Shown here one piece after another: positions 4,711-41,200 of a stretch of 64,000 nucleotides of DNA. The position numbers were made by a program, and so were the translations under genes. The stretch spans positions 40,766 to 104,765 of the forward strand of contig CAISZI010000008.1 in the NCBI GenBank assembly GCA_903889905.1, written 5' to 3'. Numbering within the stretch: position 1 is the stretch's first letter; every line of letters starts with the position of its first letter. Source of the stretch: Candidatus Wirthbacteria bacterium. Lineage in GTDB: Bacteria > Patescibacteriota > CG2-30-54-11. Under the pieces are notes generated by a model. It worked only from the letters and a program-made list of their open reading frames with translations. It ran no database searches and was not told where the DNA came from.

Positions 4711-5324
4711 GCTACTTCTGGACGCCCTTTGGGATTGCGGTCAATTTCCCGGTATTGCTCGCATTGGGTTATTTCAAAACCACTTTTATCCAAATAATTG
4801 GCCAGCTCAGCTTGCGTATAATACCTAAAAAAACGGTCGTGTTGGGCCAGTTTGTCGTTGACGACGGCTGTGTCATAATCTCCTGTTTGAGCCTTTACCA
4901 GCAAATGCAGTATCCCTCCTTGTTTCAAGACTCGCGCAAATTCCGCAATGGCTTTCACCGCATCTGCTTTGGTTTCAAGGTGCACCAGCGAGGCATGTGC
5001 CCAAATACCATCAAACGAGTCATTTGCCAACGGTAATTGTAAAAAACTACCCTGAATGTATGTCGGCCCAGGATAATGCTGCTGTGCTTGGTCTAAGAGT
5101 CCCTGCGAAAGATCCAAACCAGTCACTTTAAAACCTGCCCGATGCAAAAAACCACTATCCCTCCCACCACCACATCCCGCATCCAATACAGCTCCATTGA
5201 TTGCCACCGCTTGTCGAAAATCCTCCAGCTGCCCAAGATTGACATGGTCATCAATCGTTTGGGCATACTTTGCTGCATTCTGGTCATACCAGGCAATGGT
5301 TGCTTTCAGTCCCATACTAGCCAT
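4671..5324 (-). CDS. class I SAM-dependent methyltransferase (paralog 2 of a tandem pair)
   Basis: Contains ILDAGCGGGRDS (SAM-binding motif I). The ORF-track start at 5441 is probably too far upstream. The internal MASMGLKATIAWYDQNAAKY lines up with paralog 1's MTTMGLKETIEWYDQNAAAY, giving an ATG at 5324 that overlaps the upstream stop as ATGGCTAG. Confidence 0.75.
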   Translation of the reverse strand: MASMGLKATIAWYDQNAAKYAQTIDDHVNLGQLEDFRQAVAINGAVLDAGCGGGRDSGFLHRAGFKVTGLDLSQGLLDQAQQHYPGPTYIQGSFLQLPLANDSFDGIWAHASLVHLETKADAVKAIAEFARVLKQGGILHLLVKAQTGDYDTAVVNDKLAQHDRFFRYYTQAELANYLDKSGFEITQCEQYREIDRNPKGRPEVAWIYILARKAGPA

Positions 5325-9059: not shown

Positions 9060-9134
9060 TGGCTCCCCGGGTTGGGCTCGAACCAACAACCTTGCGGTTA
9101 ACAGCCGCTTGCTCTACCATTGAGCTACCGAGGA
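9060..9134 (-). tRNA. tRNA-Asn (anticodon GTT), CCA encoded
   Basis: The reverse complement, TCCTCGGTAGCTCAATGGTAGAGCAAGCGGCTGTTAACCGCAAGGTTGTTGGTTCGAGCCCAACCCGGGGAGCCA, folds as a cloverleaf. It has a 7-bp acceptor stem, TTCGAGC T-loop and CTGTTAA anticodon loop. Confidence 0.85.
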
Positions 9135-9706: not shown

Positions 9707-11527
9707 TTACATCTCGAGATAATCTTTCAGATTCTTGGCCGATAGCGGAAATCTCAATTTCTTCAGGGCCTTGGCTTCGATCTGGCGGATACGTTCGCGG
9801 GTGACACCAAACTGGACGCCCACTTCTTCCAGTGTCCGGGTACGGCCGTCTTCGAGGCCAAACCGCAGGATGAGGACACGTTTTTCACGCGGGGTCAGGA
9901 GGTCAAGCGCTTTCTGGATTTCTTCCTTGAGCAAAGTACGGGAAGCGGCTTCGGGCGGGCTGAGGCCATTGTCGTCTTCAATAAAGTCCATCAGCAGACT
10001 ATCGCCTTCTTCGCCGACGGGAGTTTCAAGCGAGATTGGTTCCTGGGAAATACGCAAAATTTCTTTGACTTTCTTGACCGGAAGTTCCATTTTTTCAGCA
10101 ATTTCATCGGGGGTTGGATCACGGCCTTTTTCCTGCAGCAGTTCGCGGGAGATACGGATCAGGCGGTTAATGGTTTCCACCATATGCACCGGAATACGAA
10201 TCGTACGGGCCTGGTCGGCAATGGCACGTGTGATCGCCTGACGAATCCACCACGTGGCATAGGTCGAAAACTTGAACCCGCGGCGATAGTCGAATTTTTC
10301 CACCGCACGCATGAGGCCGATATTCCCTTCCTGAATGAGGTCCAATAGGGAAAGCCCGCGGCCAATATATTTCTTGGCTACCGACACAACCAGACGCAGG
10401 TTGGCTTCGATCAGCCGTGTACGGCCGAGTTCATTGCCTTCTTCCAGCATTTTGGCGTATTTGACTTCTTCTTCGGGGGTTAAGAGGTCAACGCGGCCGA
10501 TTTCCTTGAGGTACACGCGGACCGGGTCGTCGACGCGCATCTCGTCAATTTCATGTTCAATGTTGACCGACATGCCTTCGCGGTCGTTGCCGCCAGGCAA
10601 ATTGTCCATCATCGACTTGTCACCCTCAACCACATCGATTTCGTTTTCGATAAAGCGTGCATACAACTCATCCAGTTTCTCAACATCATCTTCCGCCTGC
10701 GGAAAAAGATTGGCAATGTCTTCCTGTGTGACAAAGCCCTGCTCCTCCCCCAGCACCAGCAGGTTATGAATGGCTTCCTCATCGCTGATCACACCTGGTT
10801 CGGCTGTCGCGGCATGGTCATCGGTATCGTGATGGGCTTTGTCGATTTCCACATGTGGCGCAGGTCCAGCTTCCAGTGAAACCAGTTCTTCCTCAGGGGG
10901 TTCGGCCATTTCCAGTGGTGGCGACTCTTCTTCAGCCGCTTCCTCGCTCACCTCAACCGCAGGAGTATCATCAATTTCTACTTTAATGCGTTGCTTATTT
11001 TTGAGTTTCTCTGGTTTTTCTGCTTTGAACTGCAGTTTCTTTTTGGCGATCTCGGCTGCTTCGGTCTCTTGCTTGCTTAACGTTTTGGCTTTGACGGGTT
11101 TGACAGGTTTGGCAATTTTGGAAATTGGCAATTTGGTTTCCTTCCCAGGTTTAGTTGGCTTCGCTTTTTGATTAGGTTTAATTTTGGGGATGACTTTAAC
11201 TGGTTTTTTGACCACTTTCGACTTTTTTACCGGTTGGATTGCTTTGGCAGGTTTCACTTTTTTGACAACCGCTTTGCGCACAGGTTTGACGATTTTTTTG
11301 ACCGGTTTGGATGCCTTTTTTGGGGCTTTGGCAACTGCTTTGGCTTTGTGGGAAAGCACTTTTTTGACGACTTGTTTAGGCACCACTTTTTTGAGGTGTT
11401 TTGTCACTTTGGCTGGTTTGACCATTTTCTTGAGTGGTTTTGCCAATTTCTTGACCGGTTTGGCAACTTTTTTCACAGGTTTCTTAACCTTTTTCACCGT
11501 TTGACGAGACACAACTGGTTTGGGCAT
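9707..11527 (-). CDS. rpoD: RNA polymerase sigma-70 factor RpoD with a roughly 170-aa lysine/proline-rich histone-H1-like N-terminal extension
   Basis: C-terminal 330 aa are canonical sigma-70 regions 1.2 to 4 (...[27 protein letters not shown]..., ...[42 protein letters not shown]). N-terminus is [13 protein letters not shown]... repeats followed by an acidic segment. AGGAGG RBS overlaps the dnaG stop. Confidence 0.95.
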
Positions 11528-11539
11528 GAAAATGCCTCC

Positions 11540-12430
11540 TTAAATCCTATCCAATTCTAACTGCTCGCGCCTCACGGTGAGTTGTTGTTGCTCGTGTTGC
11601 AACGCCACGATCGTGGCTTCGTCATCCGCAATTTCGGCACGCGCGATATCTTTGGGAATTGCGGTCAGACGGTCTTTGATGTACCCATACTCGAGCCGAT
11701 CGTGGAGTTTTGCGAATACCACTTCGGGTGCAAAATCGAGTTGCAAGGGAACAAAGACGGCTTCCGCCAGAATTTTTTGTTCAGTAGTGCCAACGTTAGC
11801 ATAAAACGCCTCGAATTGGAAGGAATTCGCATCCTGCCGCATCAGCTCTTCCAGGATATGTCTAATCTCTGGACTGCTGATCCAATTGAGATTGAGCTGC
11901 GAGAGTGCTTTGATCAAAGTCGGATTTTGTACCACCAGTGTCATGAATTCTTTTTCGATGGCGGGCAATTTGGGGATGTCGCCTGTGTCAATATTGGCCA
12001 CGGGTCTGGCACGACTTGGGATGATTTTAAGCCGCTGTAACTCCACTTGCAACGTATCTTGAGACACCTTGAGCGCTTCCCCAAGCTGCTGCAAATAATG
12101 CATGCGGCTGACCTCTGACTCCAGCCGCGCGATCAGCGTCAAGGCTTCTTTGGCTGACTGCTGTTTGCCCAAACTTGAAGTCAAATCATGTGCGCTTAAA
12201 ATCGATTGCAGTCGATACGTCATCACCGGCACTGCCTTGGCTTTGGCATCCTGCCAGATTTTGATGTCTTGCTTGACAGCTTCGTCCGGGTCTTTGGCTC
12301 CAACGAGACGCACGACACGGGCGTCCATGCCATCGTTTTCGGCCAGTTCAAGCGCGTTCAGGGTTGCTTTGGCGCCAGCACTATCGGTGTCAAAGGCCAC
12401 CAGAAGTTTGGTGACAAAGCGTTTGGCCAG
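11540..12430 (-). CDS. dnaG: DNA primase DnaG, C-terminal fragment (rest of TOPRIM plus C-terminal domain), in frame with the upstream fragment across the TAG
   Basis: Straight after the TAG, the same frame reads LAKRFVTKLLVAFDTDSAGAKATLNALELA, the conserved TOPRIM DxD motif region (vvlcfDgDxAGxxA). ORF track begins this fragment at a GTG (12400) in the same frame. Confidence 0.8.
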   Translation of the reverse strand: MAKRFVTKLLVAFDTDSAGAKATLNALELAENDGMDARVVRLVGAKDPDEAVKQDIKIWQDAKAKAVPVMTYRLQSILSAHDLTSSLGKQQSAKEALTLIARLESEVSRMHYLQQLGEALKVSQDTLQVELQRLKIIPSRARPVANIDTGDIPKLPAIEKEFMTLVVQNPTLIKALSQLNLNWISSPEIRHILEELMRQDANSFQFEAFYANVGTTEQKILAEAVFVPLQLDFAPEVVFAKLHDRLEYGYIKDRLTAIPKDIARAEIADDEATIVALQHEQQQLTVRREQLELDRI

Positions 12431-13315
12431 CTACATTTGTTCAGATGTGAGAGCAGTCCCCAGCGGCGCCACCACGTTCTGCTCACCGGCCTGATGCAAT
12501 TGGATCACATCCAGATTGCCTTCGACCAGGATCAGTTCTTCGCTAAGTCTTGCCTGGTGTTTGGCAAAGTTGTAGGCATACAAAATCTGTCCTTTGTGGT
12601 AGATATCGCTGTCGGGCGAATTGATGTATTTGCCACCTTCAAATTCCTTTTTGAGCGTACGGCCGCTGAACCCCACCACCTTGTCCTGCGGGTCAAAAAT
12701 CGGGAACATCAAGCGGTCGCGGAAACGGTCGTAATAGCCATCCTGCCGGTCGGAACGGATGACCAGGCCAAGCTTTTCGGCAGTCGACAAAGTGTACCCT
12801 TTCTCGGCCAATGTCTTGACCACGGTGTCCCAGCGATCTGGCACATAACCAAGCCGAAATTGCTTCGCAATTGCCTCACCAATGCCGCGTTCCCGCAGGT
12901 AGGCACGCGCGGGTTCTCCCACGGGACTTTGCCACAGGAGGTATTCGTAAAGGCCAGCCACAAACGAATTCAAATCGGTAAACAACTCCCGTTCCTTGAT
13001 TTTGCCGGTCGAAGGTGCCTTGATGTCGTTGGTCAATGCCACGCCCGCCTGCCCCGCAAGCTGTTCGAGCGCTTCCCCGAATTCCAAACCCTCGATTTTC
13101 TGCACAAAGGCAAAAACATCGCCACTCTCGCCACAGCCAAAACATTTAAAAATGTTGAGCTCGGGATTGACCATGAACGACGGCGTTTTTTCGTTGTGGA
13201 ACGGGCACAGCGCGCGCAGATTGGTGCCGGCTTTTTTGAGTGTGACATAACGGCCGACCACATCGACGATGTTGAGCCGGTCCTTGATCTGTTCTATTTC
13301 GTTGCGGGTAGCCAT
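12431..13315 (-). CDS. dnaG: DNA primase DnaG, N-terminal fragment (zinc finger plus part of the RNA-polymerase/TOPRIM core), ended by an in-frame TAG
   Basis: CPFHNEKTPSFMV...FKCFGCGESGD (CHC2 zinc finger), then ...EGNLDVIQLHQAGEQNVVAPLGTALTSEQM ending in TAG at 12431-12433. Confidence 0.85.
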   Translation of the reverse strand: MATRNEIEQIKDRLNIVDVVGRYVTLKKAGTNLRALCPFHNEKTPSFMVNPELNIFKCFGCGESGDVFAFVQKIEGLEFGEALEQLAGQAGVALTNDIKAPSTGKIKERELFTDLNSFVAGLYEYLLWQSPVGEPARAYLRERGIGEAIAKQFRLGYVPDRWDTVVKTLAEKGYTLSTAEKLGLVIRSDRQDGYYDRFRDRLMFPIFDPQDKVVGFSGRTLKKEFEGGKYINSPDSDIYHKGQILYAYNFAKHQARLSEELILVEGNLDVIQLHQAGEQNVVAPLGTALTSEQM

Positions 13316-13429
13316 GGTTGCATGAAATCAGCGGTAAGGGGTATAATATAACTCTACAGAAGAGCGGCTACCAGTATAGCGTATTTGGGTCGCAATCTGT
13401 AGCAAATACCAAAACCAAAGGAGAAAACC

Positions 13430-13768
13430 ATGGAAAATCCCGAAGCGGCGCAGCAGGCCAATCTGGAACAGATGAAACAAAACCTGCTCGACAAACTCGA
13501 CAACTTCCTCGACCAGATGCTCCAGACCGCCGGTCTGATTGCCGAAACCGCCGTCGAAATCTTCAGCAACCTCGTCCCCAGCGTCATTCCGTGGCCGCCG
13601 TTCAATACCATCAAAAGCTTCCTCCCACAGATTCTACAGTTCCGGCAACATCACCCCTCTGCCCAGACTGCAAACCCACATATTCCGCATCCGTTCTCGT
13701 TCATCCACAAAGGCAAAGTTCGCCAAAATATCCCCCACCAATACCGTTTGCAACTCAAACTCAACTAA
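13430..13768 (+). CDS. hypothetical small protein
   Basis: 112 aa ORF with an AGGAGA RBS 7 nt upstream. Transcribed divergently from dnaG. No recognisable family. Confidence 0.5.
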   Translation: MENPEAAQQANLEQMKQNLLDKLDNFLDQMLQTAGLIAETAVEIFSNLVPSVIPWPPFNTIKSFLPQILQFRQHHPSAQTANPHIPHPFSFIHKGKVRQNIPHQYRLQLKLN

Positions 13769-13781
13769 CCGAGGAGGCCCC

Positions 13782-14162
13782 ATGCAACTGCCCGATGTCA
13801 GCAAAGTCGATTCCCAGGAATTGCTTGGTAACATTTTACAAACCGCCGACTTTGCCCAGCCTGACCAGAAACGCCTCATGGACAAGCTTGAATCCGCCAT
13901 TTATGTGCGCTCGCTCAAAACCCTGCTCGCGCTCCTCCCCGAAGAGCAGAAACGCAAGCTCGAGACCACCATGCACTTTCAGCCGCACTTTTTCCTCGAA
14001 CGCGTACTGAGCATTTTGCAGGCCTTTTCCACGCCCGAACAAATCGTCGAAATCCTCAACAAGTCCAGTGAAGAGACATTTTTGGAATTTTTTGACACTT
14101 TTTTGACTGAATGCTCGGAAGAACAGAAGAAGAAGATTAATGAGTATTTGAAGTCGGTATAA
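13782..14162 (+). CDS. hypothetical small acidic protein
   Basis: Inside the 13539..14162 ORF, MQLPDVSKVD... starts at 13782 and is preceded by a GAGGAGG RBS. 127 aa, predicted helical and acidic. Confidence 0.55.
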   Translation: MQLPDVSKVDSQELLGNILQTADFAQPDQKRLMDKLESAIYVRSLKTLLALLPEEQKRKLETTMHFQPHFFLERVLSILQAFSTPEQIVEILNKSSEETFLEFFDTFLTECSEEQKKKINEYLKSV

Positions 14163-14183
14163 TTCCTATCGTAAAAGATATTT

Positions 14184-14831
14184 ATGGATAACACCGATAA
14201 CTTTTTTGAAGCCATCCGGTCATCTTCTGAACTCCAGACTATCATTACATGCAACGCGATTTTTCAACGTATGCTGGATGTTGAAATTATCGAACAAATG
14301 GCTTCGAACCAGCCTTATTCAACACCAGATATAGAAGTTCAGCAGGACTACAGTGACGGACTCCAGGCCGAAGCTGCGGCAGCAAAGGCTAAATTGCTGC
14401 AACTTACGAACCTTGACCCCGACGCAGTCGATGGCATTGTTTTTCAGCTTGAAAGTGATGACAACGAAAAACGACAGGCTGTTTATGACCAGGAATTATT
14501 TGCCAAAGCACGCGATGTGGCAGTGCACGCGCAGCAACACAATGTGCGTCTCGATGATGTCTCCCGTACCACTGCTTCGCCTGATCTCACCAACGCCGAC
14601 AAATTACTGACAGCCTACAAGGTATGGATCGTTGCCATCGTGGATGCAGTAAATGCCAAAGACAGCTCACTGCAAGTGGACTTTAACTATGTCAAAGCAT
14701 TAATCGAGCAGGATTTGGATATCCGCGACAATCTAATTTTCGATCCCAAAAAAAATTGTCGGGTAACACTCGCCGAGCGCTACATGTCTCGTCAATCCAC
14801 TTCTTTGCAAAATCCGAAAAAGGTTTCGTAA
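14184..14831 (+). CDS. hypothetical acidic protein
   Basis: 215 aa ORF continuing the small-gene series on the same strand. A repeat-derived terminator hairpin follows at 14902-14941. Confidence 0.5.
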   Translation: MDNTDNFFEAIRSSSELQTIITCNAIFQRMLDVEIIEQMASNQPYSTPDIEVQQDYSDGLQAEAAAAKAKLLQLTNLDPDAVDGIVFQLESDDNEKRQAVYDQELFAKARDVAVHAQQHNVRLDDVSRTTASPDLTNADKLLTAYKVWIVAIVDAVNAKDSSLQVDFNYVKALIEQDLDIRDNLIFDPKKNCRVTLAERYMSRQSTSLQNPKKVS

Positions 14832-14854: not shown

Positions 14855-14941
14855 TCTCCCCATCTCCCCCCAATTCCTCCCCACCTCAACATCAACCTTA
14901 AGTGGAACGGACATGATAAATGCCTGTTCCACTCTTTTATT
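14855..14941 (+). repeat. copy 1 of a ~55-85-bp direct repeat derived from the polA 3' end and terminator (att-like)
   Basis: TTCTCCCCATCTCCCCCCAATTCCTCCCCACCTCAACATCAACCTTAAGTGGAAC..., about 90% identical to 16824-16906. Confidence 0.7.
14902..14941 (+). terminator. hairpin plus T-rich terminator after the 14184..14831 gene (copy 1 of the polA-3' repeat)
   Basis: GTGGAACGGACATGATAAATGCCTGTTCCACTCTTTTATT. Confidence 0.5.
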
Positions 14942-15335
14942 GCCACAATCTCATGAACTCGGCAGGCGGGACAATTTTTGTTCCCTTGAATTCAACCAAT
15001 TGCAACAAGTGGTGGTCGCCCGAGACAAGATAATCGGCTTTGGCCGCGAGGGCGCACTCCAAAAACCGGTTGTCACTTGGGTCTTCCGCAATGACCGAAA
15101 GTTGCGGTAAGTCAGCCAGCTGGCTGACGTTGGACGCCATTTCCAACGTTTCGATGATGAAACCAAGGTAATCCGGACTCACATGTTCTGCCAGAATGGC
15201 CCGATATTCAGCCATAATCGCCGCGGAAAGACACAGCTGAAACTTTCCCTCGAGCCAGAGATTAATGATTGCCTGCGCATGGCCACCAAAAAAGCTCGAG
15301 ATCACCACATTGGTGTCCAGCACTACCTTCCTCAT
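14937..15335 (-). CDS. vapC: PIN-domain toxin (VapC-like, PIN_3 family)
   Basis: MRKVVLDTNVVISSFF... (N-terminal acidic Asp) and ...DNRFLECALAAKADYLVSGDHHLL... (C-terminal Asp cluster). Overlaps the upstream antitoxin gene by 4 nt. Confidence 0.85.
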   Translation of the reverse strand: MRKVVLDTNVVISSFFGGHAQAIINLWLEGKFQLCLSAAIMAEYRAILAEHVSPDYLGFIIETLEMASNVSQLADLPQLSVIAEDPSDNRFLECALAAKADYLVSGDHHLLQLVEFKGTKIVPPAEFMRLWQ

Positions 15336-15661
15336 GGGGTGGCCTTCTGCTTCTGCCGGTATGCTTCAATCATCTGTGGTACGTCCGCTGCGGTCAGTCC
15401 CTTGAATCGCATCTCAGCGCCAGCGGCCGACCAAACCTGTTTGATGTCATCAATCTGCATTTGCCTGGCCAAGCCATTGGCGCCGGCATTGATGAAGGTG
15501 CGGCTGAGTTGCTCGGATCTAAAAAACCATTGTTTACCAAATTTATAAGCAGGGATCTGGTTGGTTTGTGCCTTGCGGATGATGGTTTGTACATTTTTCC
15601 ACGGCACAAAATCCAGTTCTGCCACTTGTTTGGCTGTCAAAAAACCTGAAGTCTTTTCCAT
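15332..15661 (-). CDS. helix-turn-helix (excisionase/HTH_17-type) DNA-binding protein, putative antitoxin partner of the PIN toxin
   Basis: ...LTAKQVAELDFVPWKNVQTIIRKAQTNQIPAYKFGKQWFFRSEQL... matches the MerR/excisionase-type HTH_17 pattern. Its 3' end overlaps the PIN gene start as ATGG. Confidence 0.75.
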   Translation of the reverse strand: MEKTSGFLTAKQVAELDFVPWKNVQTIIRKAQTNQIPAYKFGKQWFFRSEQLSRTFINAGANGLARQMQIDDIKQVWSAAGAEMRFKGLTAADVPQMIEAYRQKQKATP

Positions 15662-15912: not shown

Positions 15913-16758
15913 ATGGCAACAACGTCAAAATCGACCACAGGAGATTTTCCCGATTCAATTGATCTAACCACAGCGACAGACAATATTGATAGAAATACCG
16001 CTGATCGTTTTAAGCTAGCGTGTAGCAAGGCCGGAGTCAAATTGTGTGAACTAACTACCCTGACTAAATACTTGGCCGCTAGATATGCCCCTCGCAATGG
16101 AACCGCCCAAGTTCCTAACACAACCAATATTGACAATACATTCGAGAATTTTCGGGGTGCTCCAAACACTCTATTGTTAGATGCGGTTGAGGGGGAAATT
16201 AAACTATTCATGGTATCCCTTGAACCGATGTATAAACAACTGATTGATAAATCTACTGATGATATCGAGCACGCGATTGGAAGGAATCACGTTGTTACCA
16301 GCGACGCTGTACTCGCAGCAATTGAATTATGGGGAACAGACGCCATGACGATTGAACCATGGAAGACTAATTTTGGACATCAACCTACTGAAACCAGTGG
16401 GCTAAATGCTCAAGCAGGCGAGGATACTAGTTGGAAAGATCCACTGGCTTCAGTCAGGCAATCAACGGGATTCGCAAATCGTGCAGCCCGTGCCCAGAAA
16501 GGACATAACCGCCGCAAACAGTATGACAAAGCAACTGAAAATGTTCCCGGTATTTTGGGTTTTATCAGGGATCCGGTGTGGGCTCGTGAAACGATTCTCA
16601 ACGCTAGAATTGATAAAAGTCCAGCAGCCAGGGATATTGTGTCGATTGCCTCAGCGACAACACTTCTAAGCATCAAAACTGACTTAGAGGCCATGCTGGA
16701 TGATCTGCGACACCAATTACCAATGGGTAAATTGCCCGAAACACCCACTCAGTCATAA
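15913..16758 (+). CDS. hypothetical protein (accessory, low-GC flank)
   Basis: 281 aa ORF behind a strong sigma70-like promoter in a 120-bp AT-rich stretch, and followed by a hairpin plus T-run terminator. No family recognised. Confidence 0.55.
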   Translation: MATTSKSTTGDFPDSIDLTTATDNIDRNTADRFKLACSKAGVKLCELTTLTKYLAARYAPRNGTAQVPNTTNIDNTFENFRGAPNTLLLDAVEGEIKLFMVSLEPMYKQLIDKSTDDIEHAIGRNHVVTSDAVLAAIELWGTDAMTIEPWKTNFGHQPTETSGLNAQAGEDTSWKDPLASVRQSTGFANRAARAQKGHNRRKQYDKATENVPGILGFIRDPVWARETILNARIDKSPAARDIVSIASATTLLSIKTDLEAMLDDLRHQLPMGKLPETPTQS

Positions 16759-25077: not shown

Positions 25078-26865
25078 GTGGTCGCCAAAAACAAAAGTCT
25101 GGAAGAAACGCTACTTGGCCTGGGCATCATCACGCCTGAGCAGATGGCGGAAATACGCAAAAAAATGGCCGTGGAAAACAAAACTGCGCGCCAGGTGATT
25201 TTGGCGATGAATTTGACCAACGAAGAAATCCTGGCCAAAACCGAAGCCATTTTACTCGACGTACCCTTTATTAATCTCGAAAAAGCCAAAATTCCGCTTG
25301 AAATTCTGAAGCTGATTCCTGAACGAATCTCCAAAACCTACGACACCGTGGCCTTTTTCAAAGGTGACGACAATACACTCAAAGTCGCGATGAGCAACCC
25401 CGCCGACTTTCAGGCGATTGAATTCCTGGAAAAGAAAATTGGCATGGTGATTGAGCCCTACATGGCGCTGCCTGAGCACATTCATGTCATCCAGAGTGAA
25501 TATCATGCCCTCGGCAGCGAAGTCAGCAAGGCGCTCGCCGATGTTGAAGAAACCGCTGTCGACATTACAGCGACGACCGCGACCAGTGCTTCTGAAGCCG
25601 AAGCCACGGGCATGACCGATGACATTGGGGACGCTCCTGTCGCCCGTGTCGTCAATACGATCTTGGAATTTGCCATCAAAAACAAAGCCTCTGACATCCA
25701 TATTGAAGCGCTTGAAAACAAAACCCGCGTCCGTTACCGCGTTGACGGCATTATGAGCGAAGCCCTGACCTTGCCCAAGCAGGTCCACCCGGCCGTCGTT
25801 TCCCGCATCAAAATCATGTCCCGCCTCAAAATTGACGAAAAACGCGTCCCGCAGGACGGTCGTTTCCGCGTCACCATCCATGGCAAAGACAATGACCTGC
25901 GTGTCTCGACCCTGCCAACCATTTTTGGTGAAAAAATCGTCATGCGCGTCCTGGACCGCTCGACATCGGCGCCTACCCTGGAACAGCTGGGCTACCGCGG
26001 TCAGGCGCTCAAGACGATTGAGGAAAACATCAAACGGCCACACGGCTTGATTCTCACCACTGGCCCTACCGGCAGCGGTAAATCAACTTCGCTGTTTTCC
26101 GTGCTGACCCAACTCAATACCGGACTCGTCAATACCATTACACTCGAAGACCCGGTTGAATACTGGATCTCGGGGGTAAACCAGGTACAGATCAACGTCC
26201 AGGCTGGACTAACCTTTGCGGCTGGCCTCCGCGCCGTCCTGCGTCAGGACCCCAACATCATCATGGTTGGAGAAATTCGCGACCAGGAAACAGCCGAAAT
26301 GGCCATTCATGCGGCGCTTACCGGTCACCTGGTCGTTTCAACCTTGCACACCAACAGTGCGGCCGGCGCCATTCCCCGCTTTCTGGACATGGGTGTCGAA
26401 CCATTCCTGCTCGCGTCCTCGCTCAAAGTGGTCATTGGTCAGCGTCTCTGCCGCAAAATCTGCCCGGACTGCCTGGAAAGCTATGAAGCCAGCAAAGAAC
26501 TCGAAAAAACCGTGCGCACGGTGCTGCCGGAATTATTTGATCTCAAACATCCCATCCACGACGACATTTTTAAATGGTATCCCAAAATTCCCAAAGACAT
26601 TGGCAAAAAATCGATCTCACTCGTCCGTGGTACGGGTTGTGACACCTGTAACCACATTGGCTACCAGGGCCGGCTGGGTGTTTACGAAGTCATGGAAATT
26701 ACCGATTCGATGGCCCAGCTCGCGCTCAAGAATGTCTCGGAATTCGATTTGCTGGACCATGCCAAAAAAGAAACCCACATGCTCACCCTGCAGCAGGATT
26801 CCTACCTCAAGGCGCTCGAGGGTAAAACCACGCTCGAGGAAGCCATGCGCGTTGCCCAGAACTAG
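25078..26865 (+). CDS. pilB: type IV pilus assembly ATPase PilB (GspE family)
   Basis: N-terminal T2SSE_N-like domain, Walker A GPTGSGKST, Asp box, Walker B ...IMVGEIRD, His box, and a tetracysteine CPDC...CDTC motif. Confidence 0.95.
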   Translation: MVAKNKSLEETLLGLGIITPEQMAEIRKKMAVENKTARQVILAMNLTNEEILAKTEAILLDVPFINLEKAKIPLEILKLIPERISKTYDTVAFFKGDDNTLKVAMSNPADFQAIEFLEKKIGMVIEPYMALPEHIHVIQSEYHALGSEVSKALADVEETAVDITATTATSASEAEATGMTDDIGDAPVARVVNTILEFAIKNKASDIHIEALENKTRVRYRVDGIMSEALTLPKQVHPAVVSRIKIMSRLKIDEKRVPQDGRFRVTIHGKDNDLRVSTLPTIFGEKIVMRVLDRSTSAPTLEQLGYRGQALKTIEENIKRPHGLILTTGPTGSGKSTSLFSVLTQLNTGLVNTITLEDPVEYWISGVNQVQINVQAGLTFAAGLRAVLRQDPNIIMVGEIRDQETAEMAIHAALTGHLVVSTLHTNSAAGAIPRFLDMGVEPFLLASSLKVVIGQRLCRKICPDCLESYEASKELEKTVRTVLPELFDLKHPIHDDIFKWYPKIPKDIGKKSISLVRGTGCDTCNHIGYQGRLGVYEVMEITDSMAQLALKNVSEFDLLDHAKKETHMLTLQQDSYLKALEGKTTLEEAMRVAQN

Positions 26866-26927
26866 TGTTGTGGGACACCAAAAAATAGTATAATTACAAT
26901 TGGTTAACTAAAAGTTCGGAAAACAAA

Positions 26928-28145
26928 ATGGCAAAATATCAATACAAAGCGCGCGACGGCCAGGGAGCCATCAAATCCGGTGTGATTGATGCGATGAACA
27001 AAAACAGCGCCATTTCACAACTGCGGGACAAACAGTTCATCCCGCTCGAGATCAAAGAAAAAACCGGCGACATTGAAATTTTCAACAAGATCAAAGACGC
27101 GCTGGGCGTACCCATGAAAGACAAAGTCATCTTTACGCGACAGCTCGCTTCCATTATCAACGCCGGCATCACGCTGGTCGAAGCCCTGCAACTGATTCAG
27201 GACCAAACCAACAGCCGTCAACTCAAAAATATCATCGCCAAAGTGCTGGAAGACATTCAGGGTGGGCTAACCTTTGCCGACGCGCTCGCCAAATACCCGG
27301 ATGTTTTTTCCGACTTATTCATCAATATCGTCCGCGCCGGTGAAATCAGCGGTACGCTCGACACGTCACTCGAAAACCTGGCCGAACAGATGCAAAAAGA
27401 TGCCGCCGTCATGGGCAAAATTAAAGGCGCTATGACATTGCCCATTCTCGTGCTTATCGTCATCGTCGGGGTGATTATCCTGATGAGTGTGGCTGTCATC
27501 CCACAGCTCAGCGATTTGTTCAAAGAAGCTGGTGCATCTCTGCCCCTGCCGACGCAAATCATGATGGCCATGAGTGAAGTGCTGACGACACCACTCTACG
27601 ATCTCGCACTGGTGGCAATCATCGCGGTCAGCATTTTTTTGCTGACCAAATTCCTCAAAACCAAACGCGGTAAAGAAATCAAGGATACCGCAATTTTCAA
27701 AATGCCGGTTTTTGGCAGCCTGCAGAAACTGGTCATTTACACACGTCTTACCGGCGTCCTGGCGATGTTGCTCAAAAGTGGCGTGCCCCTGCTCAAGGCC
27801 ATGGATATTATTGCCGACCTGGTGGGCAATACGCTCTATACAAGAGCCCTGCACAAAGTAGCCAAGGAAGTGGAAAAAGGTGTTCCCCTCTCGCAAGCCA
27901 TCTCCCAGGATCCCCTTTTCCCCAATATGATTTCCCAAATGCTGAATATCGGCGAACAAACCGGTTCCATTGACAACATGCTGGAAAAAGTCTGCAAACT
28001 CTACGAAACCGATATGAGTAACCTCATCGGGAACCTCACCACTTTGCTCGAACCGATGCTGATGGTCATTATGGGTGGCGCTGTAGCGTTCATTGTCATG
28101 GCCGTGCTCATGCCTATTTACAACCTGGTAAATGTGATACAATAA
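26928..28145 (+). CDS. pilC: type IV pilus platform protein PilC (T2SS F-domain, GspF family)
   Basis: 405 aa with two T2SSF repeats and three TM segments. Conserved ...PLLKAMDIIADLVGN... segment. Confidence 0.95.
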   Translation: MAKYQYKARDGQGAIKSGVIDAMNKNSAISQLRDKQFIPLEIKEKTGDIEIFNKIKDALGVPMKDKVIFTRQLASIINAGITLVEALQLIQDQTNSRQLKNIIAKVLEDIQGGLTFADALAKYPDVFSDLFINIVRAGEISGTLDTSLENLAEQMQKDAAVMGKIKGAMTLPILVLIVIVGVIILMSVAVIPQLSDLFKEAGASLPLPTQIMMAMSEVLTTPLYDLALVAIIAVSIFLLTKFLKTKRGKEIKDTAIFKMPVFGSLQKLVIYTRLTGVLAMLLKSGVPLLKAMDIIADLVGNTLYTRALHKVAKEVEKGVPLSQAISQDPLFPNMISQMLNIGEQTGSIDNMLEKVCKLYETDMSNLIGNLTTLLEPMLMVIMGGAVAFIVMAVLMPIYNLVNVIQ

Positions 28146-28208
28146 TTTTTGATAATGTGCTATAATAAAAAGAAGTCGAAAAAATTAATTAATAAAAAAA
28201 ACCAAAAG

Positions 28209-28661
28209 ATGCCAAAATCAACTGAAAACAATGTTCAAGCAAATGTCTCCCTGCTGCATGTAACCCACGCACGGGGGTTTACGCTCATCGAACTGCTGGT
28301 GGTGATCGCCATCATTGGCGTGATGGCCGCCCTGGTTATTGTCAACCTAAGCACAGCCAATAAGAAATCGCGCGACGCACGGCGTAAAGCCGACCTCAGC
28401 GAAGTCCGCACAGCCATGGAATTGTACTATGATTCTTATTTGTCATACCCTCTAGCCCCGGCTACAGCTACCAACATTGCGGCACTTTCGAGCTATCTGA
28501 GCCCACAATACATTCAAAAACTACCTGTTGATCCCAAAAATACCGGATCCAATATCTATCTCTATACCATGCCGGCTGTTTCTCCCAGCTCTGCCGGTTA
28601 TCAGTTAAATGTGAGCCTTGAGAATGCGGCCACTCCCTATACGGTTTATGGTACCAATTAA
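28209..28661 (+). CDS. type IV pilin (class III signal peptide), paralog 1
   Basis: Leader MPKSTENNVQANVSLLHVTHARG|FTLIELLVVIAIIGVMAALVIV, with the prepilin cleavage site G|FTLIE and Glu+5. The ORF track's upstream Met at 28149 is less likely. Confidence 0.85.
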   Translation: MPKSTENNVQANVSLLHVTHARGFTLIELLVVIAIIGVMAALVIVNLSTANKKSRDARRKADLSEVRTAMELYYDSYLSYPLAPATATNIAALSSYLSPQYIQKLPVDPKNTGSNIYLYTMPAVSPSSAGYQLNVSLENAATPYTVYGTN

Positions 28662-28707
28662 TCTTCACATAAATTTATTATTTTTTCTCACGAAAGGAGA
28701 AAAACAA

Positions 28708-29127
28708 ATGAAGAGACAAAAAGGCTTCACCCTCATCGAACTCCTGGTGGTGATTGCTATCATTGGCGTGATGGCCGCCCTGGTCATCGTCAACCTCAGT
28801 ACAGCCAACAAAAAATCGCGCGATGCCCGCCGCAAGGCCGACCTCAGCGAAGTCCGCACAGCCATGGAACTGTATTTCGATGCCAATACAGGCTATCCTC
28901 CCCTGACGGTTTCGGGTGCGAATATCACCGGACTGTCCAGCTATCTTAGCCCGACCTACATCCAGACTTTGCCTCTCGACCCCAAAAATACGGCAACCGG
29001 TGGATTCATCTATACCTATACCATGCCAGCAGTCACGCCAAGCACGGCCGGGTATCAGATCAATGCCACCATGGAAAATCCTTCGGCCACGAACCCTTCT
29101 CCTTACTCGGTCTACGGTTCAAACTAA
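28708..29127 (+). CDS. type IV pilin, paralog 2
   Basis: AAGGAGAAAA RBS then MKRQKG|FTLIELLVVIAIIGVMAALVIV. First roughly 50 aa nearly identical to paralog 1, C-terminal domains differ. Strong rho-independent terminator just downstream. Confidence 0.9.
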   Translation: MKRQKGFTLIELLVVIAIIGVMAALVIVNLSTANKKSRDARRKADLSEVRTAMELYFDANTGYPPLTVSGANITGLSSYLSPTYIQTLPLDPKNTATGGFIYTYTMPAVTPSTAGYQINATMENPSATNPSPYSVYGSN

Positions 29128-29144
29128 GTCCTCCATCATGCATC

Positions 29145-29178
29145 AAAAAGTCCCGCCCGCCTGGGCGGGACTTTTTTG
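29145..29178 (+). terminator. rho-independent terminator after the tandem pilin genes
   Basis: AAAAAGTCCCGCCCGCCTGGGCGGGACTTTTTTGA. A 10-bp GC-rich stem with a 4-nt loop, then a T6 run. Confidence 0.8.
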
Positions 29179-29213
29179 ATACACCCCTGCTTTCTCTTAC
29201 CAAAAACAACACC

Positions 29214-30044
29214 ATGCCTATTCCCTATTTTTTTGCCCTTTGTCTGGTTTTTTTGATCGGTGCCGCCATTGCCAGTTTTTTGTGTAACGTCGTTTACCGT
29301 TTGCTGCATCAGGAAAAATTTCTCAAAAACCGTTCCAAATGTGAACATTGTCAGCATTTTCTCGAACCCTGGGACCTGATCCCTGTCCTCAGTTTTGCCT
29401 GGCTCAGAGGCCGATGCCGGTATTGCCGTCAACCGATTCCAGCCAAGTATTGGCTGACAGAAATCATCACAGGTGTCATTTTTGTCATTAGTTTTGTCAC
29501 TGTTTTCCCCTCTATTGCAGCGGATTTCAACAACCCTGAACTCTATTTCAAGCTACTGTTTGAGTGGTGGAGCATCGGTATCCTGCTGTTTGTGGCGCTC
29601 TATGACATAGAGGCCATGATGGTCATCGAAGCAGTGGTCTGGATCGCTATCCTGGTGACGGCCATTTTCCGTATGCTGCTCCTGTCCTGGCAACCACTTG
29701 GCCCCAGTCTGGCAGCCTTTGCTTCCATGGCGGGCGTCGCAATTTTAAACGCCTTGTTTATCTGGACGATTGTGCTGATTTCCAAAGAACAAGGCATGGG
29801 CAAAGGTGACATCGGACTCGCCTTTCTGATTGGACTGATTGCCGGTTGGCCGGGTGCTGTGGCGAGCTTGCTGCTGGCTTTTGTCTCCGGCGCCACCGTG
29901 GGGTTAATGCTGATTGCCCTGCGCACCAAAACCCTGCGCCAGGTTATCCCTTTTGCGCCATTTCTCGCTTTTGGCGGAATTACCGCCATGTTGTTTGGTG
30001 AAGCGATCATCCGTTGGTATAGTCAAACCTTTTTGTTGTTTTAG
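29214..30044 (+). CDS. pilD: prepilin peptidase PilD (A24 family) with N-terminal zinc-finger
   Basis: CEHCQH...CRYCRQ tetracysteine motif, eight TM helices, catalytic Asp regions (...ALYDIE..., ...GKGDIGLAFLIG...). Confidence 0.9.
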   Translation: MPIPYFFALCLVFLIGAAIASFLCNVVYRLLHQEKFLKNRSKCEHCQHFLEPWDLIPVLSFAWLRGRCRYCRQPIPAKYWLTEIITGVIFVISFVTVFPSIAADFNNPELYFKLLFEWWSIGILLFVALYDIEAMMVIEAVVWIAILVTAIFRMLLLSWQPLGPSLAAFASMAGVAILNALFIWTIVLISKEQGMGKGDIGLAFLIGLIAGWPGAVASLLLAFVSGATVGLMLIALRTKTLRQVIPFAPFLAFGGITAMLFGEAIIRWYSQTFLLF

Positions 30045-30046
30045 TC

Positions 30047-30631
30047 ATGCTCAACCTGCACCACAAGCATCAACAGCCATTTGCCTTTACCCTGATCGAA
30101 CTTCTGGTCGTCGTCAGTATTGTCATCCTGGTGTCGGTCATGATTTTGCCACGTCTGCAGCAACAAAACCTCCGTACCCGTGTCTCCAGCGGTGCCAACC
30201 AGATGCGCGCAGATCTCCGCAATGTTCGTGCCTGGGCCCAGGCCGTGCGCAACGGCACCCACGACGCCAGCAGTTTTAATAATCAGTTGGTTGCCTATGC
30301 CTTTCACGCCGACATCACCCCAGGTCAAAATTCCCAGTATTCGATCTGGGAAGTCTGGACCAATGCCAGCGGCCTTCTCGCCACCTACAGTCAGACACCG
30401 GATACACGCAGACACTACTATGCGCTGCCTGATAAAGTCGTCGTGAGCAGCATCACTCCCGTCAACCCTGACAACTCTGGCACAGTTGATATATACTTCC
30501 AGACGCCAACCGGGACTCCCGATACCCACTACACGACTTTTGATACCAATGGACGGGTTGTGATCAATCTCAACCTGAATAACAGCTATCCCCAAACGGT
30601 CACAATATCCTCCAACGGTGTTATTTTTTAA
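30047..30631 (+). CDS. minor pilin / pseudopilin-like protein (prepilin-type N-terminus)
   Basis: N-terminus ...PFA|FTLIELLVVVSIVILVSVMIL, a class III signal with Glu+5. Confidence 0.75.
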   Translation: MLNLHHKHQQPFAFTLIELLVVVSIVILVSVMILPRLQQQNLRTRVSSGANQMRADLRNVRAWAQAVRNGTHDASSFNNQLVAYAFHADITPGQNSQYSIWEVWTNASGLLATYSQTPDTRRHYYALPDKVVVSSITPVNPDNSGTVDIYFQTPTGTPDTHYTTFDTNGRVVINLNLNNSYPQTVTISSNGVIF

Positions 30632-30643
30632 ACGCAAGCACGC

Positions 30644-31282
30644 ATGCGCAGACGGACACATCCAAAGGCTCAAATCCTGATCGAGGTCATCGTCGGCCTT
30701 GCCATGGTTTCTGTCGTGCTGGTTGCACTGATGTCGCTCAGCATTCACTCCCTGCAGGTACAAATCAGCAACAAGCTCAAACAACAGACTTCCCAACTCA
30801 ACCGCGAATCGATGGAAGTGGTGCGACAAATCCGCGACGGCCTGGGACAGGTCAAAGTGAGCGGCAGTGAATGCCCCTGGAACTGGTCCAATACCGCTGC
30901 CAGCAGCGACCCGTGCCAAACGATTTGGGTCAGCAATGACTGGACATACTTTCGGCTGTATTATGAAACCAATAATGGTGCGGCGCACTGGGTTCTGGAA
31001 GCCATGACCAACGCGGCCTGCAATAACGACGTCACCAATCCCAAAGCCGATTGCTACAAACTGAGTTACAATAAAAACACCAACCAATTTGGCTACAAAA
31101 ACGTCGGGGGATTTACGGCCACAACGGATAGTATTTTTTATCGCCAGATCCGGTTGCGGGACCGCACGGCATCCGGCAACAACGGTGTCGTTCTGTCCAA
31201 AACACTGTATTCCATCCTCAGCTGGCGTCAGGCCTCGACCAACCAGAAAAGTGAAGTTTATACTGTATTATCGATGTGGTAA
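30644..31282 (+). CDS. pilin-like protein (prepilin-type hydrophobic N-terminus)
   Basis: N-terminus ...KAQILIEVIVGLAMVSVVLVALMS (Glu+5 in a hydrophobic helix). Sits inside the pilus operon. Confidence 0.6.
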   Translation: MRRRTHPKAQILIEVIVGLAMVSVVLVALMSLSIHSLQVQISNKLKQQTSQLNRESMEVVRQIRDGLGQVKVSGSECPWNWSNTAASSDPCQTIWVSNDWTYFRLYYETNNGAAHWVLEAMTNAACNNDVTNPKADCYKLSYNKNTNQFGYKNVGGFTATTDSIFYRQIRLRDRTASGNNGVVLSKTLYSILSWRQASTNQKSEVYTVLSMW

Positions 31283-31825
31283 ATGAAAAACCATCAACAT
31301 CATGGCATGTCGGTGATTGAAGCGCTGGTTGCCATCACGATTTTTTCGTTCATGACCATGATCGCCATGTCCGTGCTGACCACCATCAGCCGCAGCCAGA
31401 AAAAAACCACCATTGCCAACGACGTTTACGGTTCCGCACAGGAGATGATGGACAACATCGTACAGATCACCAAACAATCCAACGACACTCTCACCAGCGT
31501 CGGTCCGCAGGGCAACCAGCAAGCTTGTGTCAACTCGTGCCTGGCGCTGCTTCAACCCGACGGTTCCACGGTAATTTTTACATTGGTCAACAAACAATTA
31601 TTAATGCTCAAAAGTGACCTCAACGACCCCAGCCCGACACGGCTGAGTTCCCCCAATGTCAATGTCGACAACCTGACGTTTACCATCAACCGGCCGGCCA
31701 TCAATCCTCCCCCACCGTCGGTCAGCATTGGACTCGATGTCTCGGCGATTACCAGCGATCCCAAACACCCGCAACTTTCTGCGAGTACGCATTTACAAAA
31801 TGTTATCGTGCTGCGTAATTACTAA
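31283..31825 (+). CDS. minor pilin-like protein (PilW/PulJ-like)
   Basis: N-terminus ...HHG|MSVIEALVAITIFSFMTMIAMSV, a class III signal. Confidence 0.7.
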   Translation: MKNHQHHGMSVIEALVAITIFSFMTMIAMSVLTTISRSQKKTTIANDVYGSAQEMMDNIVQITKQSNDTLTSVGPQGNQQACVNSCLALLQPDGSTVIFTLVNKQLLMLKSDLNDPSPTRLSSPNVNVDNLTFTINRPAINPPPPSVSIGLDVSAITSDPKHPQLSASTHLQNVIVLRNY

Positions 31826-34251: not shown

Positions 34252-34338
34252 GCCGAAGTGGTGAAATTGGTAGACACGCAACGTTCAGGGCGTTGTGAGC
34301 TCACGCTCATGAGAGTTCAACTCTCTCCTTCGGCACCA
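34252..34338 (+). tRNA. tRNA-Leu (anticodon CAG), long variable arm, CCA encoded
   Basis: GCCGAAGTGGTGAAATTGGTAGACACGCAACGTTCAGGGCGTTG...CTTCGGCACCA. Anticodon loop TTCAGGG. Type II variable arm. Confidence 0.85.
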
Positions 34339-34436
34339 ACCTACGCTCGGGATAGCCGTCTAAGAAGCGGCGAGCTACGGTTGGCTGCGCCAGGCTACAA
34401 AAGGTACGCAGCCATTTATGAACATTAAAACTCCCC

Positions 34437-34532
34437 ATCAATCCGTCCAATTTGTGCAGGACCGCTCCAAGCAAATTGGACACCGATTCGTTTTTTGCCT
34501 ACTTTTTTACTCAAAAAAAGTAGAAAGTCTTT
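34437..34532 (+). repeat. tRNA leader element copy 2 (upstream of tRNA-Leu-GAG)
   Basis: Same element. Hairpin 2 reads CTACTTTTTTACTCAAAAAAAGTAG, a compensated change relative to copy 1. Confidence 0.75.
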
Positions 34533-34618
34533 GCCGAGGTGGTGAAATGGTAGACACGCAAGCTTGAGGGGCTTGTGGGAGCAATCCTGTGGAGGTTCAA
34601 GTCCTCTCCTCGGCACCA
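34533..34618 (+). tRNA. tRNA-Leu (anticodon GAG), CCA encoded
   Basis: GCCGAGGTGGTGAAATGGTAGACACGCAAGCTTGAGGGGCTTG...CCTCGGCACCA. Anticodon loop TTGAGGG. Confidence 0.85.
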
Positions 34619-34789
34619 ACCTTCGCTCGCAGCGAGCTGCGGTTGGCAGGCCATCACCCAATTGATGGCTTCGCCAGCTTAATGAACTTATAGCGTACAA
34701 CTGTTAAACCAACACGCAGTTGAGCCAAAGAGGGCCTGCCCTCCGAAGCTTGTCAGGTTACGAGTAACCTGACTTCCCGAAGCGTAGGA

Positions 34790-34866
34790 GGGCGATTAGC
34801 TCAGTTGGTTAGAGCGTCTGCCTTACACGCAGAATGTCGCAGGTTCGAGTCCTGCATCGCCCACCA
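34790..34866 (+). tRNA. tRNA-Val (anticodon TAC), CCA encoded
   Basis: GGGCGATTAGCTCAGTTGGTTAGAGCGTCTGCCTTACACGCAGAA...GGTTCGAGTCCTGCATCGCCCACCA. Anticodon loop CTTACAC. Confidence 0.85.
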
Positions 34867-35010
34867 GCCTACGCTGTAGGCATCCCCATCATAATCATAC
34901 GTAGTGGGTTACCCATATTTCCGCTTTCAGCTTCGGCTGGCAGGCCATCTCTCCCCTCTTGGTTATGTGTTAGCTAACACATAACGGGATTGAACCTTAA
35001 AATCCTAATG

Positions 35011-35105
35011 TAATCCGTTCGTTTTGCGCAGGGCCGTCCCAAGCAAAACGAACACCGCTTCGTTCTTTTGCCAACTTTTCTTACTCAAAGAAAAGTTGAA
35101 TCTCC
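35011..35105 (+). repeat. tRNA leader element copy 3 (upstream of tRNA-Phe)
   Basis: GTTCGTTTTGCGCAGGGCCGTCCCAAGCAAAACGAAC and CAACTTTTCTTACTCAAAGAAAAGTTG. Both stems carry compensatory changes relative to copy 1. Confidence 0.75.
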
Positions 35106-35181
35106 GCCGAGATAGCTCAGCCGGTAGAGCGAAGGACTGAAAATCCTTGCGTCCCCAGTTCGATCCTGGGTCTCGGCACCA
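35106..35181 (+). tRNA. tRNA-Phe (anticodon GAA), CCA encoded
   Basis: GCCGAGATAGCTCAGCCGGTAGAGCGAAGGACTGAAAATCCTTG...GGTCTCGGCACCA. Anticodon loop CTGAAAA. Confidence 0.85.
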
Positions 35182-35305
35182 CTTCGAAAATCCCCCTTGG
35201 CAACCAATTGCCATTTCGTTATACTTCTCTCCGTTGGTTTTGTGAAAATGGCACCACAAACGTTAGTTCCCAGGCGGGCCTGCCCGCCGTAGCTTCTGAG
35301 CGTAG

Positions 35306-35381
<76 letters not shown>

Positions 35382-38284: not shown

Positions 38285-41200
38285 CTAATTGAAGTTGACT
38301 GCGCTGCCATTATTATAAAGCATCTGCACCTGGGCGGCGGTGAGGCCATAATTATAGAATCTCACATCATCTATCTGGCCATCGATAACACGCCAAAAGA
38401 CGGCATCGGGATTCCGGCCAATCATGAAATTACGGGCAACACTGACATTACCGGCTGCAGCGCCACTGCCTTCCAATTTTCCATTGACATAAATATATCC
38501 TACACCAGCGCTGCGCACACCAACGATATGGTACCAGGTACCGGTGGCGATGACCGTCGTGCTGCAAATGGTTGAGCTGGTGACAGAGAAATCCATACGG
38601 TTGGCGACACCGCAGATTGACCCTCCCGTATCATTTTCAAAATGCGTCCCGTCCCAGGTGCCAGAATAGACTGAATTGGAGACAGGCGGATAGTAATCGG
38701 CGAGTCCAGCGTATTTGACCCAGTAGGCAATGCTGTAATCCCCCGTCCCGAAATTGAACTGCGAGGCTGTGCCCAAATCCACATAATCATTAACGGCCGG
38801 ATTAAATGCCAGACTCGCATTCCACTTCCCAGCCGCCCCATTCCCCCAGGCCGTACCCGCCGTGCTACATGTACCCGCCGCGGTCACTCCCATCCAGGTA
38901 CCATTGAACTGATTGGAGCTCACATCGTGAATCGTCGTGCCCTGACATTCGTCCAGGTTGTAGTAGGAGATTGGCTTGCCACGATTGTAGTCCCAGGCAA
39001 CCTGGGCGGCGGAGCGGGCATAATTATAAACCTTGACATCATCGATGGCACCATTAAATGGCCAGACGGTTGCCCCTTCGCGACCGATTTCAAAAGCGCC
39101 CGAACTGGTGGTCGGATTGGAATGGGTTCCCTGGGAGGCATAACCCAGCAAAACACCATTTTTATAAAACTTGACCGTAGTGCCACTGCGCACAGCCACC
39201 ACATGCTGCCAGACATTGGTGACGACACTTCCGGATGCGCTAAAGGAGTTTTGCAGCGCGCCTGCCTGATTGGTCGTCACATTCAACTCATCCCCAAGCA
39301 ACGAAAAATTGTAGCCGTCGGTGTTGTACGTTCCGCGAGCCATAATCCGTGTCGCTGCGGGTAATGCAGTCGGATTGATCCAAGCCTCGAGCGTAAAATC
39401 CGAACTGGTAAAATTCAGTGCAGATGAGGGCGAGTTGTCATTGGCCGTGATGTAATCTCCACTCGCACTGCCGTTACTCCCCGTAAAACTACCCGCTTTG
39501 CCAATTTTGCCGCTCTGCCAATGGCTGTCTGATCCAGTCCAGGTCCCGATGATCCCATTGCCACTGATATCATTGGCCGTGCTGCCGGTTCCTTCGTTTA
39601 GATTCCAATACGCCACCGGCGCGCTGCAGCTGGTACTATCCCCCGGCACGCAATACTCGCGGGCGGCGGAATTATCAGGAACACCGGCCGCAGTGGTACC
39701 GGTGGTGCCAAGCGTAAGGGCTGAACCATGGTTGTAGTCAAGCAGAACCTCGTCGGGCGACAGGGCGTAGTTATAGATCTTGATCTCATCCAAAAGTCCA
39801 TTGAGATAACGACTGGCTAATCCTGAATTGTCATTGCCAAAATAGAGCTTGTCGTCAGCGGCTGAAACCGCACCCTGTGACCAGGTAGCGGAACCTTGGC
39901 TTACCCCATTCAGATACAAGGTCGCCACCTGATTTTGATAAACGCCAACAAGCTGGTACCAGGTGCCCGTTGTCAGGGTCGCCGTGGCATAAGGAGAATT
40001 ACACGCGACGTTGGTTTTACAAATGCTGAAGTAAAATTTGTTCTGTGCTTGATCAATACCCAATCCATAACCAAACTTATTGGCAGTCGAATATTGACTG
40101 ACAATCATGGGCGAAGACAAACTGACTGAGCTCACATTTACCCACGTCGAAATCGTGAAATCATTGGTGGAATTAAACTTATAAATGCTGTTAGTCGCAT
40201 CAACATAGCCGTTTGCGTTAGCCGGGAATGACAGCGCTTTGTTGTATTTGCCAGCTGTGCTCCATGTCACCGAAGAGCCCAGCGTGCCGCTGACATTACT
40301 TGGACTGGCATCGTGTGCAGTAGTGCCATAACCTTCGTCAAATTTCCACCAACCAATGGTCGATCCCACCGGACTTCCGCCCGCCGGATGGCCACCATTC
40401 ATGTCTTCAACGACCTGCTTCCCGGTACGGGCATAGTTATAAATCTTGACCTCGTCGATCTGACCATTGGTGCGATAGTTGACGCCGCTGTTGGCACCGA
40501 TGTTGAGAGTGGAATCCGACTGTTTCATCGTGCCCGTCGTCGTATCGGTCCAGGTGGTGCTGTCTACACCATCAACATACATTTTGAACTGGGTACCACT
40601 ACGGACAACCTCAACATGATGCCAGGCGTTGATACTGATCGTGGGGCCATCAGCCTCGTACTTGGTATTGCTGGTATTCCACCAGTGAAAATATAATTTG
40701 TCGTCAGCGGCCAGCGAGGTCAGGTCAAAGGACGCATAAGGCGAGGCCACGTTACGCTGTACATAAATAATTTGGTCTTCCCCTTTGGCCGACGACAGTT
40801 GACTCAGTTTGACCCAGATCGAGATGGACAGGTCATTGGGTGGCATCAGCGTAGCGCTGTTACTGACACTCAAAAAGTTATCCGAACCATTGAAATTGAG
40901 TGAAGTACCAAATTTCCCCGGTTTCCACTGGCTACCAAGCGTACCATTCAAGGTGCCGCTAAAGCCATTGCCACTCGAGTCATTGGCAGTGACACCCGTG
41001 TGGTCATCGAATTTCCAATACCCCACTGGCCCCGGCGCCCAGTTGTAAAGTTGGGAAACCTCACTGACGGACAAGGCGCGATTGTATAGCCGGACTTCAT
41101 CAATCAATCCATTATAAAAATTGGTGGGCGTGGTGGTTGAATCCTGAGCACCAACCTGGAAGCGTCCGAGGGTGGCAGATATGCTGGAGGGAATTGTGCC

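Follow-up and report, generated by a model that had tools for sequence, protein, structure and literature searches.

An in-frame TAG codon inside the TOPRIM region of a Wirthbacteria-like dnaG gene

The gene dnaG, encoding the bacterial DNA primase, is essential in bacteria, but in the stretch of DNA analysed here (64 kb, from now on referred to as the window) its reading frame is interrupted by a TAG codon. This raises the question of whether the stop is an error in the sequence, a recent change in an otherwise ordinary gene or a codon that is translated in some way. An earlier note on the same DNA had proposed three explanations (sequencing or assembly error; recent mutation or population variant; suppression or readthrough), and these turned out to be the right set, with no positive evidence for the third.

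Position of the TAG and the domains that it separates

The gene dnaG is located on the minus strand at 11540..13315 and consists of 591 codons, the internal TAG included, followed by a terminal TAA (11540..11542). The in-frame TAG is codon 295 (12431..12433, minus strand, seen as cta on the plus strand), and the peptide flanking it on the minus strand reads ...NVVAPLGTALTSEQM up to the stop and LAKRFVTKLLVAFDTDSAGAKA... after it. Residues 1–294 (12434..13315, minus strand), the product expected under the standard code, contain the zinc ribbon, the core N-terminal subdomain and the first third of TOPRIM, and the continuation, residues 296–591 (11543..12430, minus strand), contains the remainder of TOPRIM followed by the DnaB-binding and C-terminal domains. 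The ORF at 13315..12431 (294 aa and the TAG) and its continuation to 11540 are in the identical frame, in line with the earlier note, where the frame was described as continuous through the TAG.

When dnaG was scored against the NCBIfam dnaG model TIGR01391, with an X substituted at the TAG, residues 2–414 matched model positions 2–413/414 in a single ungapped stretch (E = 4.6e-124) and the score of 414.4 bits was above the curated cut-off of 283.6, which places the protein within the equivalog. Since this one ungapped stretch runs across the TAG, a single sense codon has been replaced without any indel or frameshift, and the same claim in the earlier note is thereby upheld. The run of 296 stop-free codons that follows the TAG is homologous to primase and has a probability of ~2e-6 of arising by chance at this composition. 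The in-frame TAG is confirmed as a real feature of the given sequence, beyond chance; the uninterrupted frame of the DnaG family is not found here, the break being at codon 295.

Pfam searches identified the CHC2 zinc ribbon PF01807 (Zn_ribbon_DnaG, residues 4–96, E = 1.4e-35), DNAG_N PF08275 (residues 129–251, E = 9.4e-39) and Toprim_4 (residues 260–293) upstream of the TAG, and Toprim_2 (profile positions 39–87) together with DnaB_bind downstream of it. The TOPRIM profile is itself divided by the TAG, with positions about 1–37 found before and about 39–88 after the stop, so the earlier placing of the TAG within the TOPRIM region agrees with the domain map. In an alignment of 25 sequences the zinc-ribbon columns C37, H40, C58 and C61 are invariant, as are the TOPRIM acidic residues E265, D269, D309, D311 and D342, and the conserved primase blocks previously suggested to flank the TAG can be recognised on either side of it both as Pfam domains and as invariant columns. 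The invariant TOPRIM glutamate (VEGxxD), Glu265, is encoded by GAA at 12521..12523 (minus strand), 5' of the TAG, and the invariant DxD metal-binding motif of TOPRIM, Asp309-Thr-Asp311, is encoded by GAC ACC GAT at 12383..12391 (minus strand), 3' of the TAG. The stop codon separates the catalytic Glu265 from Asp309-x-Asp311 within the TOPRIM fold, a site across which the solved primases 2au3, 5guj and 1dd9 all align. In the order of its domains (zinc ribbon, core N-subdomain, TOPRIM, DnaB-binding) and in the presence of the invariant residues the protein is like bacterial DnaG as represented by TIGR01391 and by 1dd9, 2au3 and 5guj.

Codon 295 in relatives and the state of the downstream half

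Among the matches listed, the closest homologs of the protein are the primase of Candidatus Wirthbacteria CG2_30_54_11 and four metagenomic proteins, all five uninterrupted and about 593–598 aa long. They are merely 46–50% identical to it, which together with the TAG at codon 295 sets this gene apart from other bacterial DnaG. All of the 120 homologs listed are uninterrupted, nearly all of them at full length (about 550–630 aa). Scans of genome and metagenome contigs for relatives gave matches at ≤45% identity only, and searches for exact-protein matches to the N-terminal ORF of DnaG, to RpoD and to one neighbouring ORF found none. Three distant DnaG homologs (P0079, P0080 and P0093) are about 980 aa long and carry LAGLIDADG/Hint-type domains, and are therefore intein-containing primases, unrelated to the TAG described here.

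The alignment column that corresponds to codon 295 is variable, with the residues R, R, R, R, R, Q, R, Q, S, G, E, D, R, D, E, E, K, S, N, D, R, E, E and K in the 24 homologs. The five closest relatives have an Arg at this position, encoded by AGA, CGG and CGA in the three closest relatives that were checked at the DNA level, and the solved primases have Gln (1dd9), Lys (5guj) and Asn (2au3). The TAG is not conserved, all aligned relatives having sense residues at position 295. Gln, Lys and Glu each occur at this position in the homologs, and their codons CAG, AAG and GAG are one base away from TAG. Judged from this column, one of these three codons most likely stood here before the change, and the changed base would then be 12433 and not 12432, the base pointed to in the earlier note.

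Downstream of the TAG no second stop or frameshift occurs in residues 296–591, and the invariant columns after the stop (R299, D309, D311, A313, G314, A317, D342 and P343) are all kept. The mean identity to 24 homologs is 50.4% for residues 1–294 (47–50% in intact relatives), 38.6% for residues 296–420 (33–36%) and 17.5% for residues 421–591 (17–20%), and no relaxed selection after the TAG was detected when these regional identities were compared with those of the intact relatives. A decaying pseudogene was considered and rejected, the gene having a single lesion and a downstream conservation equal to that of intact relatives. As the downstream half is both intact and normally conserved, the TAG is very young, is read through or is not really there.

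Origin of the stop and its alternatives

Very probably the gene is an ordinary, single-copy-type housekeeping dnaG with a one-base lesion, for which there are two possible origins. There is about an even chance that cells of the living population have a sense codon here and that the TAG is a consensus error or a captured minority allele, and that the TAG is a very recent real nonsense mutation with no further decay as yet is a possibility to be taken seriously, if a less probable one. According to this explanation a single-base change would have converted the variable TOPRIM codon 295 to TAG, and with the standard code, in use in the other genes of this genome, translation would end after residue 294. 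The resulting 294-residue fragment would keep the zinc ribbon and Glu265 but neither the DxD metal site nor the domain that binds DnaB and, going by what is known of TOPRIM catalysis and by the domain map, it should not prime. Since dnaG is essential and such a fragment is without half its metal site and its helicase-binding domain, a fixed nonsense allele that is not rescued is unlikely. This is also what counts against a lesion, since a fixed nonsense allele in an essential gene needs rescue, and it favours either an error or readthrough.

The gene has much in common with the genes flagged as having an internal stop in assemblies, in that a lone premature stop is found in an otherwise intact conserved gene whose relatives are without it. 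Patterns of this kind usually point to an error in the consensus, to a captured minor allele or to a nonsense mutation of very recent date, and isolated internal stops in conserved genes are flagged routinely when genome and metagenome assemblies are annotated. The case of dnaG is a familiar one, although it differs from the usual case in that the gene affected is essential, which again makes a fixed and unrescued mutation unlikely. In an annotation the gene is best named dnaG and given an internal-stop flag (possible sequencing error or pseudogene), and it should not be taken as evidence for an alternative code.

The sequence surrounding dnaG is of good quality as far as the other genes of the window tell, with PolA (979 aa), FtsH, S1, RpoD, PilB, PilC and a Mur ligase all intact together with three genes of 2,421–2,945 aa. 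No assembly damage was seen elsewhere in the window, and nothing indicates a high error rate. A random substitution in these genes has a chance of about 3.4% of yielding a stop, and a single stop therefore fits either a low background of substitution errors that are otherwise invisible or one unlucky event. Two specific sources of error were examined and rejected. A mis-join or repeat at the TAG site disagrees with the finding that no 12-mer or 14-mer from 12380..12480 occurs a second time in the window, and the site is far from the window edges. A base-calling error at a methylated CAGCTG, which would apply if the codon was CAG, disagrees with the number of CAGCTG sites in the window (23 occurrences, 24.6 expected), and neither TAGCTG nor CAGCTA is enriched.

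When analysing the use of TAG in the window, the TAG in dnaG was found to be the only internal stop in the 19,506 codons of a curated set of 40 genes covering 91% of the window, and nowhere else in the window does a TAG join two long segments of one frame on a coding strand. TAG terminates 11 of the 37 other genes (30%) and is the second most used terminator (TAA 22, TAG 11, TGA 4). Both PilB and YebC end in TAG, with complete Pfam profiles at their C-termini, and TAG also terminates the genes whose ends lie at 5317, 3751 and 46307, as the earlier note said when it described TAG as an ordinary stop elsewhere. Six tRNA genes were found, five of them in a cluster on the plus strand at 34252..35381 (Leu-CAG, Leu-GAG, Val-TAC, Phe-GAA and Gly-GCC) and one, Asn-GTT, placed separately on the minus strand at 9060..9134. 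None of the six tRNAs of the 64 kb has the anticodon CUA, and no pyrrolysine-type (pylSBCD) or release-factor genes were found in the window.

Natural decoding of amber codons occurs as pyrrolysine insertion in some Firmicutes and Deltaproteobacteria and as recoding of TAG to Gln in some phages, and in such systems in-frame TAGs are numerous, TAG is used less as a terminator and a tRNA-CUA is dedicated to the decoding. The dnaG described here is similar to them in that an in-frame TAG interrupts a gene whose translation should continue past it, but differs in that there is one TAG in 19,506 codons, in that TAG ends 30% of the genes and in that the window is without a tRNA-CUA. Reassignment of TAG is ruled out for this window, which is also the scope within which the earlier judgement, that a wide reassignment is unlikely, holds good.

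Of the alternatives to an error or recent mutation, the one that survives best, although improbable, is site-specific amber suppression or leaky readthrough, in which the TAG is real and some of the ribosomes insert a residue at codon 295, using either a near-cognate tRNA or a suppressor tRNA-CUA whose gene lies elsewhere. Enough full-length primase could then be made, as any residue would be tolerated and few molecules are needed, and position 295 does indeed tolerate at least eight different residues. The intact and conserved half downstream of the TAG would also be accounted for, and the base following the TAG is a C, a context that reportedly gives the weakest termination in E. coli. However, three ordinary TAG terminators also have C as the next base, among them that of YebC with its complete Pfam profile, and a genome suppressing TAG would tolerate poorly that 11 of 37 genes are closed by this codon. 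The absence of a tRNA-CUA among the six tRNAs of the window also speaks against suppression, as does the absence of the stop from the relatives, both among the 120 listed and in the 25-sequence alignment. Folding of a 120-nt segment starting with the TAG gave -35.2 kcal/mol compared to -33.0 ± 3.1 for shuffled sequences (z = -0.70), meaning that no readthrough-stimulating RNA structure was detected 3' of the TAG within these 120 nt.

In these respects the gene is unlike cases of programmed readthrough, since its stop is not conserved in relatives and has no stimulatory structure, and the TAG-C context is common to ordinary terminators. A literature search found nothing relevant on Wirthbacteria, or on an in-frame stop or readthrough in dnaG, and nothing found here supports programmed readthrough or suppression. 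That the TAG is both real and fixed, with full-length primase being made by site-specific amber suppression or near-cognate readthrough, is considered very unlikely. If true, it would mean that an essential bacterial gene depends on stop-codon readthrough in a deep-branching Wirthbacteria-like bacterium, and a fixed TAG together with in-frame TAGs in other essential genes would point to suppression of amber codons in a lineage near the Candidate Phyla Radiation that has hardly been studied.

A true loss of dnaG, in which the gene is a young pseudogene and priming is left to a different primase encoded elsewhere in the genome (by a second dnaG or a mobile element, for example), is likewise very improbable. 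It would agree with the TAG being present in the given sequence and with the lack of any general assembly error in the window. Nevertheless, there is no second lesion in the 591 codons, conservation downstream of the stop is normal, the gene is in the conserved dnaG-rpoD operon position, which is that of the housekeeping copy, and no other primase was found within the 64 kb.

Even less probable is a functional split primase, in which residues 1–294 and a polypeptide restarting downstream of the stop come together again as an active TOPRIM fold. The only candidate for a restart is a GTG, encoding Val306, at 12398..12400 (minus strand); located 11 codons past the TAG, it is the first start-type codon in this frame after the stop. 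No SD-like motif was found upstream of this GTG; this is weak evidence against a restart because, even with a liberal definition, an SD-like motif was present within 22 nt upstream of the start in only 12 of 38 genes. Promoter-like and terminator-like matches around the split were at chance level, and nothing promoter-like precedes GTG306. A restart at this codon would lose ten residues including the invariant R299, and the break lies inside TOPRIM with Glu265 parted from DxD. Naturally split genes differ from this one in that its downstream half is without an SD-like start signal of its own and its relatives are unsplit, no split form being found among the 120 homologs listed.

Finally, a reassignment of TAG to an amino acid across the genome (code 15-like, or pyrrolysine) has the single in-frame TAG and nothing further in its favour and can practically be dismissed, given one internal TAG per 19,506 codons, 11 of the 37 other genes closed by TAG where the family profiles end, and a window without tRNA-CUA or Pyl-type genes.

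Neighbouring genes and other loci in the window

Directly downstream of dnaG, on the same minus strand, lies rpoD (sigma-70, 9707..11527), with GGAGG as its ribosome-binding site. On the contigs of the relatives dnaG is likewise paired with rpoD, so that dnaG is like its DnaG relatives in forming an operon with rpoD, and on the Wirthbacteria contig the neighbourhood of dnaG also includes polA, an AI-2E transporter and two small ORFs, as in the window. The RpoD of the window (606 aa) has an N-terminal extension of ~240 aa before sigma region 1.1, rich in Lys, Pro and Val and with KKxxKPVKK-like repeats. Its Pfam domains start at residue 250, and the RpoD proteins of the closest relatives are just 361–497 aa long.

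On the opposite strand of dnaG an ORF of 381 aa (12206..13351, plus strand) with low-complexity sequence was found; rather than a gene, it most likely represents a shadow ORF produced by the dnaG frame. Between dnaG and polA there are several ORFs of 110–280 aa on the plus strand (13430..14831 and 15913..16758) without any Pfam match, and relatives also have small unannotated ORFs at the equivalent site (L043 9223..9938 and L046 2642..3563). The same region between dnaG and polA contains a gene for a PIN_3 domain protein (14937..15661, minus strand), which overlaps the end of a small upstream HTH_17 gene by 4 nt, and the two are likely a toxin-antitoxin pair.

A type IV pilus gene set is located on the plus strand at 25078..30044, comprising a PilB-type ATPase (T2SSE), PilC (T2SSF), two pilins with N-methyl motifs and a prepilin peptidase, and is followed on the same strand by three ORFs without assigned function (30047..31825). 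Further along the window three consecutive giant genes, all on the minus strand (38285..46108, 46307..55144 and 56729..63994), encode proteins of 2,607, 2,945 and >2,421 aa, respectively, and probably represent surface or adhesion proteins. Each of the three, all of which are uninterrupted, contains 5–6 Laminin_G_3 (ConA-like lectin) domains, and DUF2341 is found in two of them. A small gene encoding an AAA_14/DUF4143 ATPase is situated between the second and the third giant gene.
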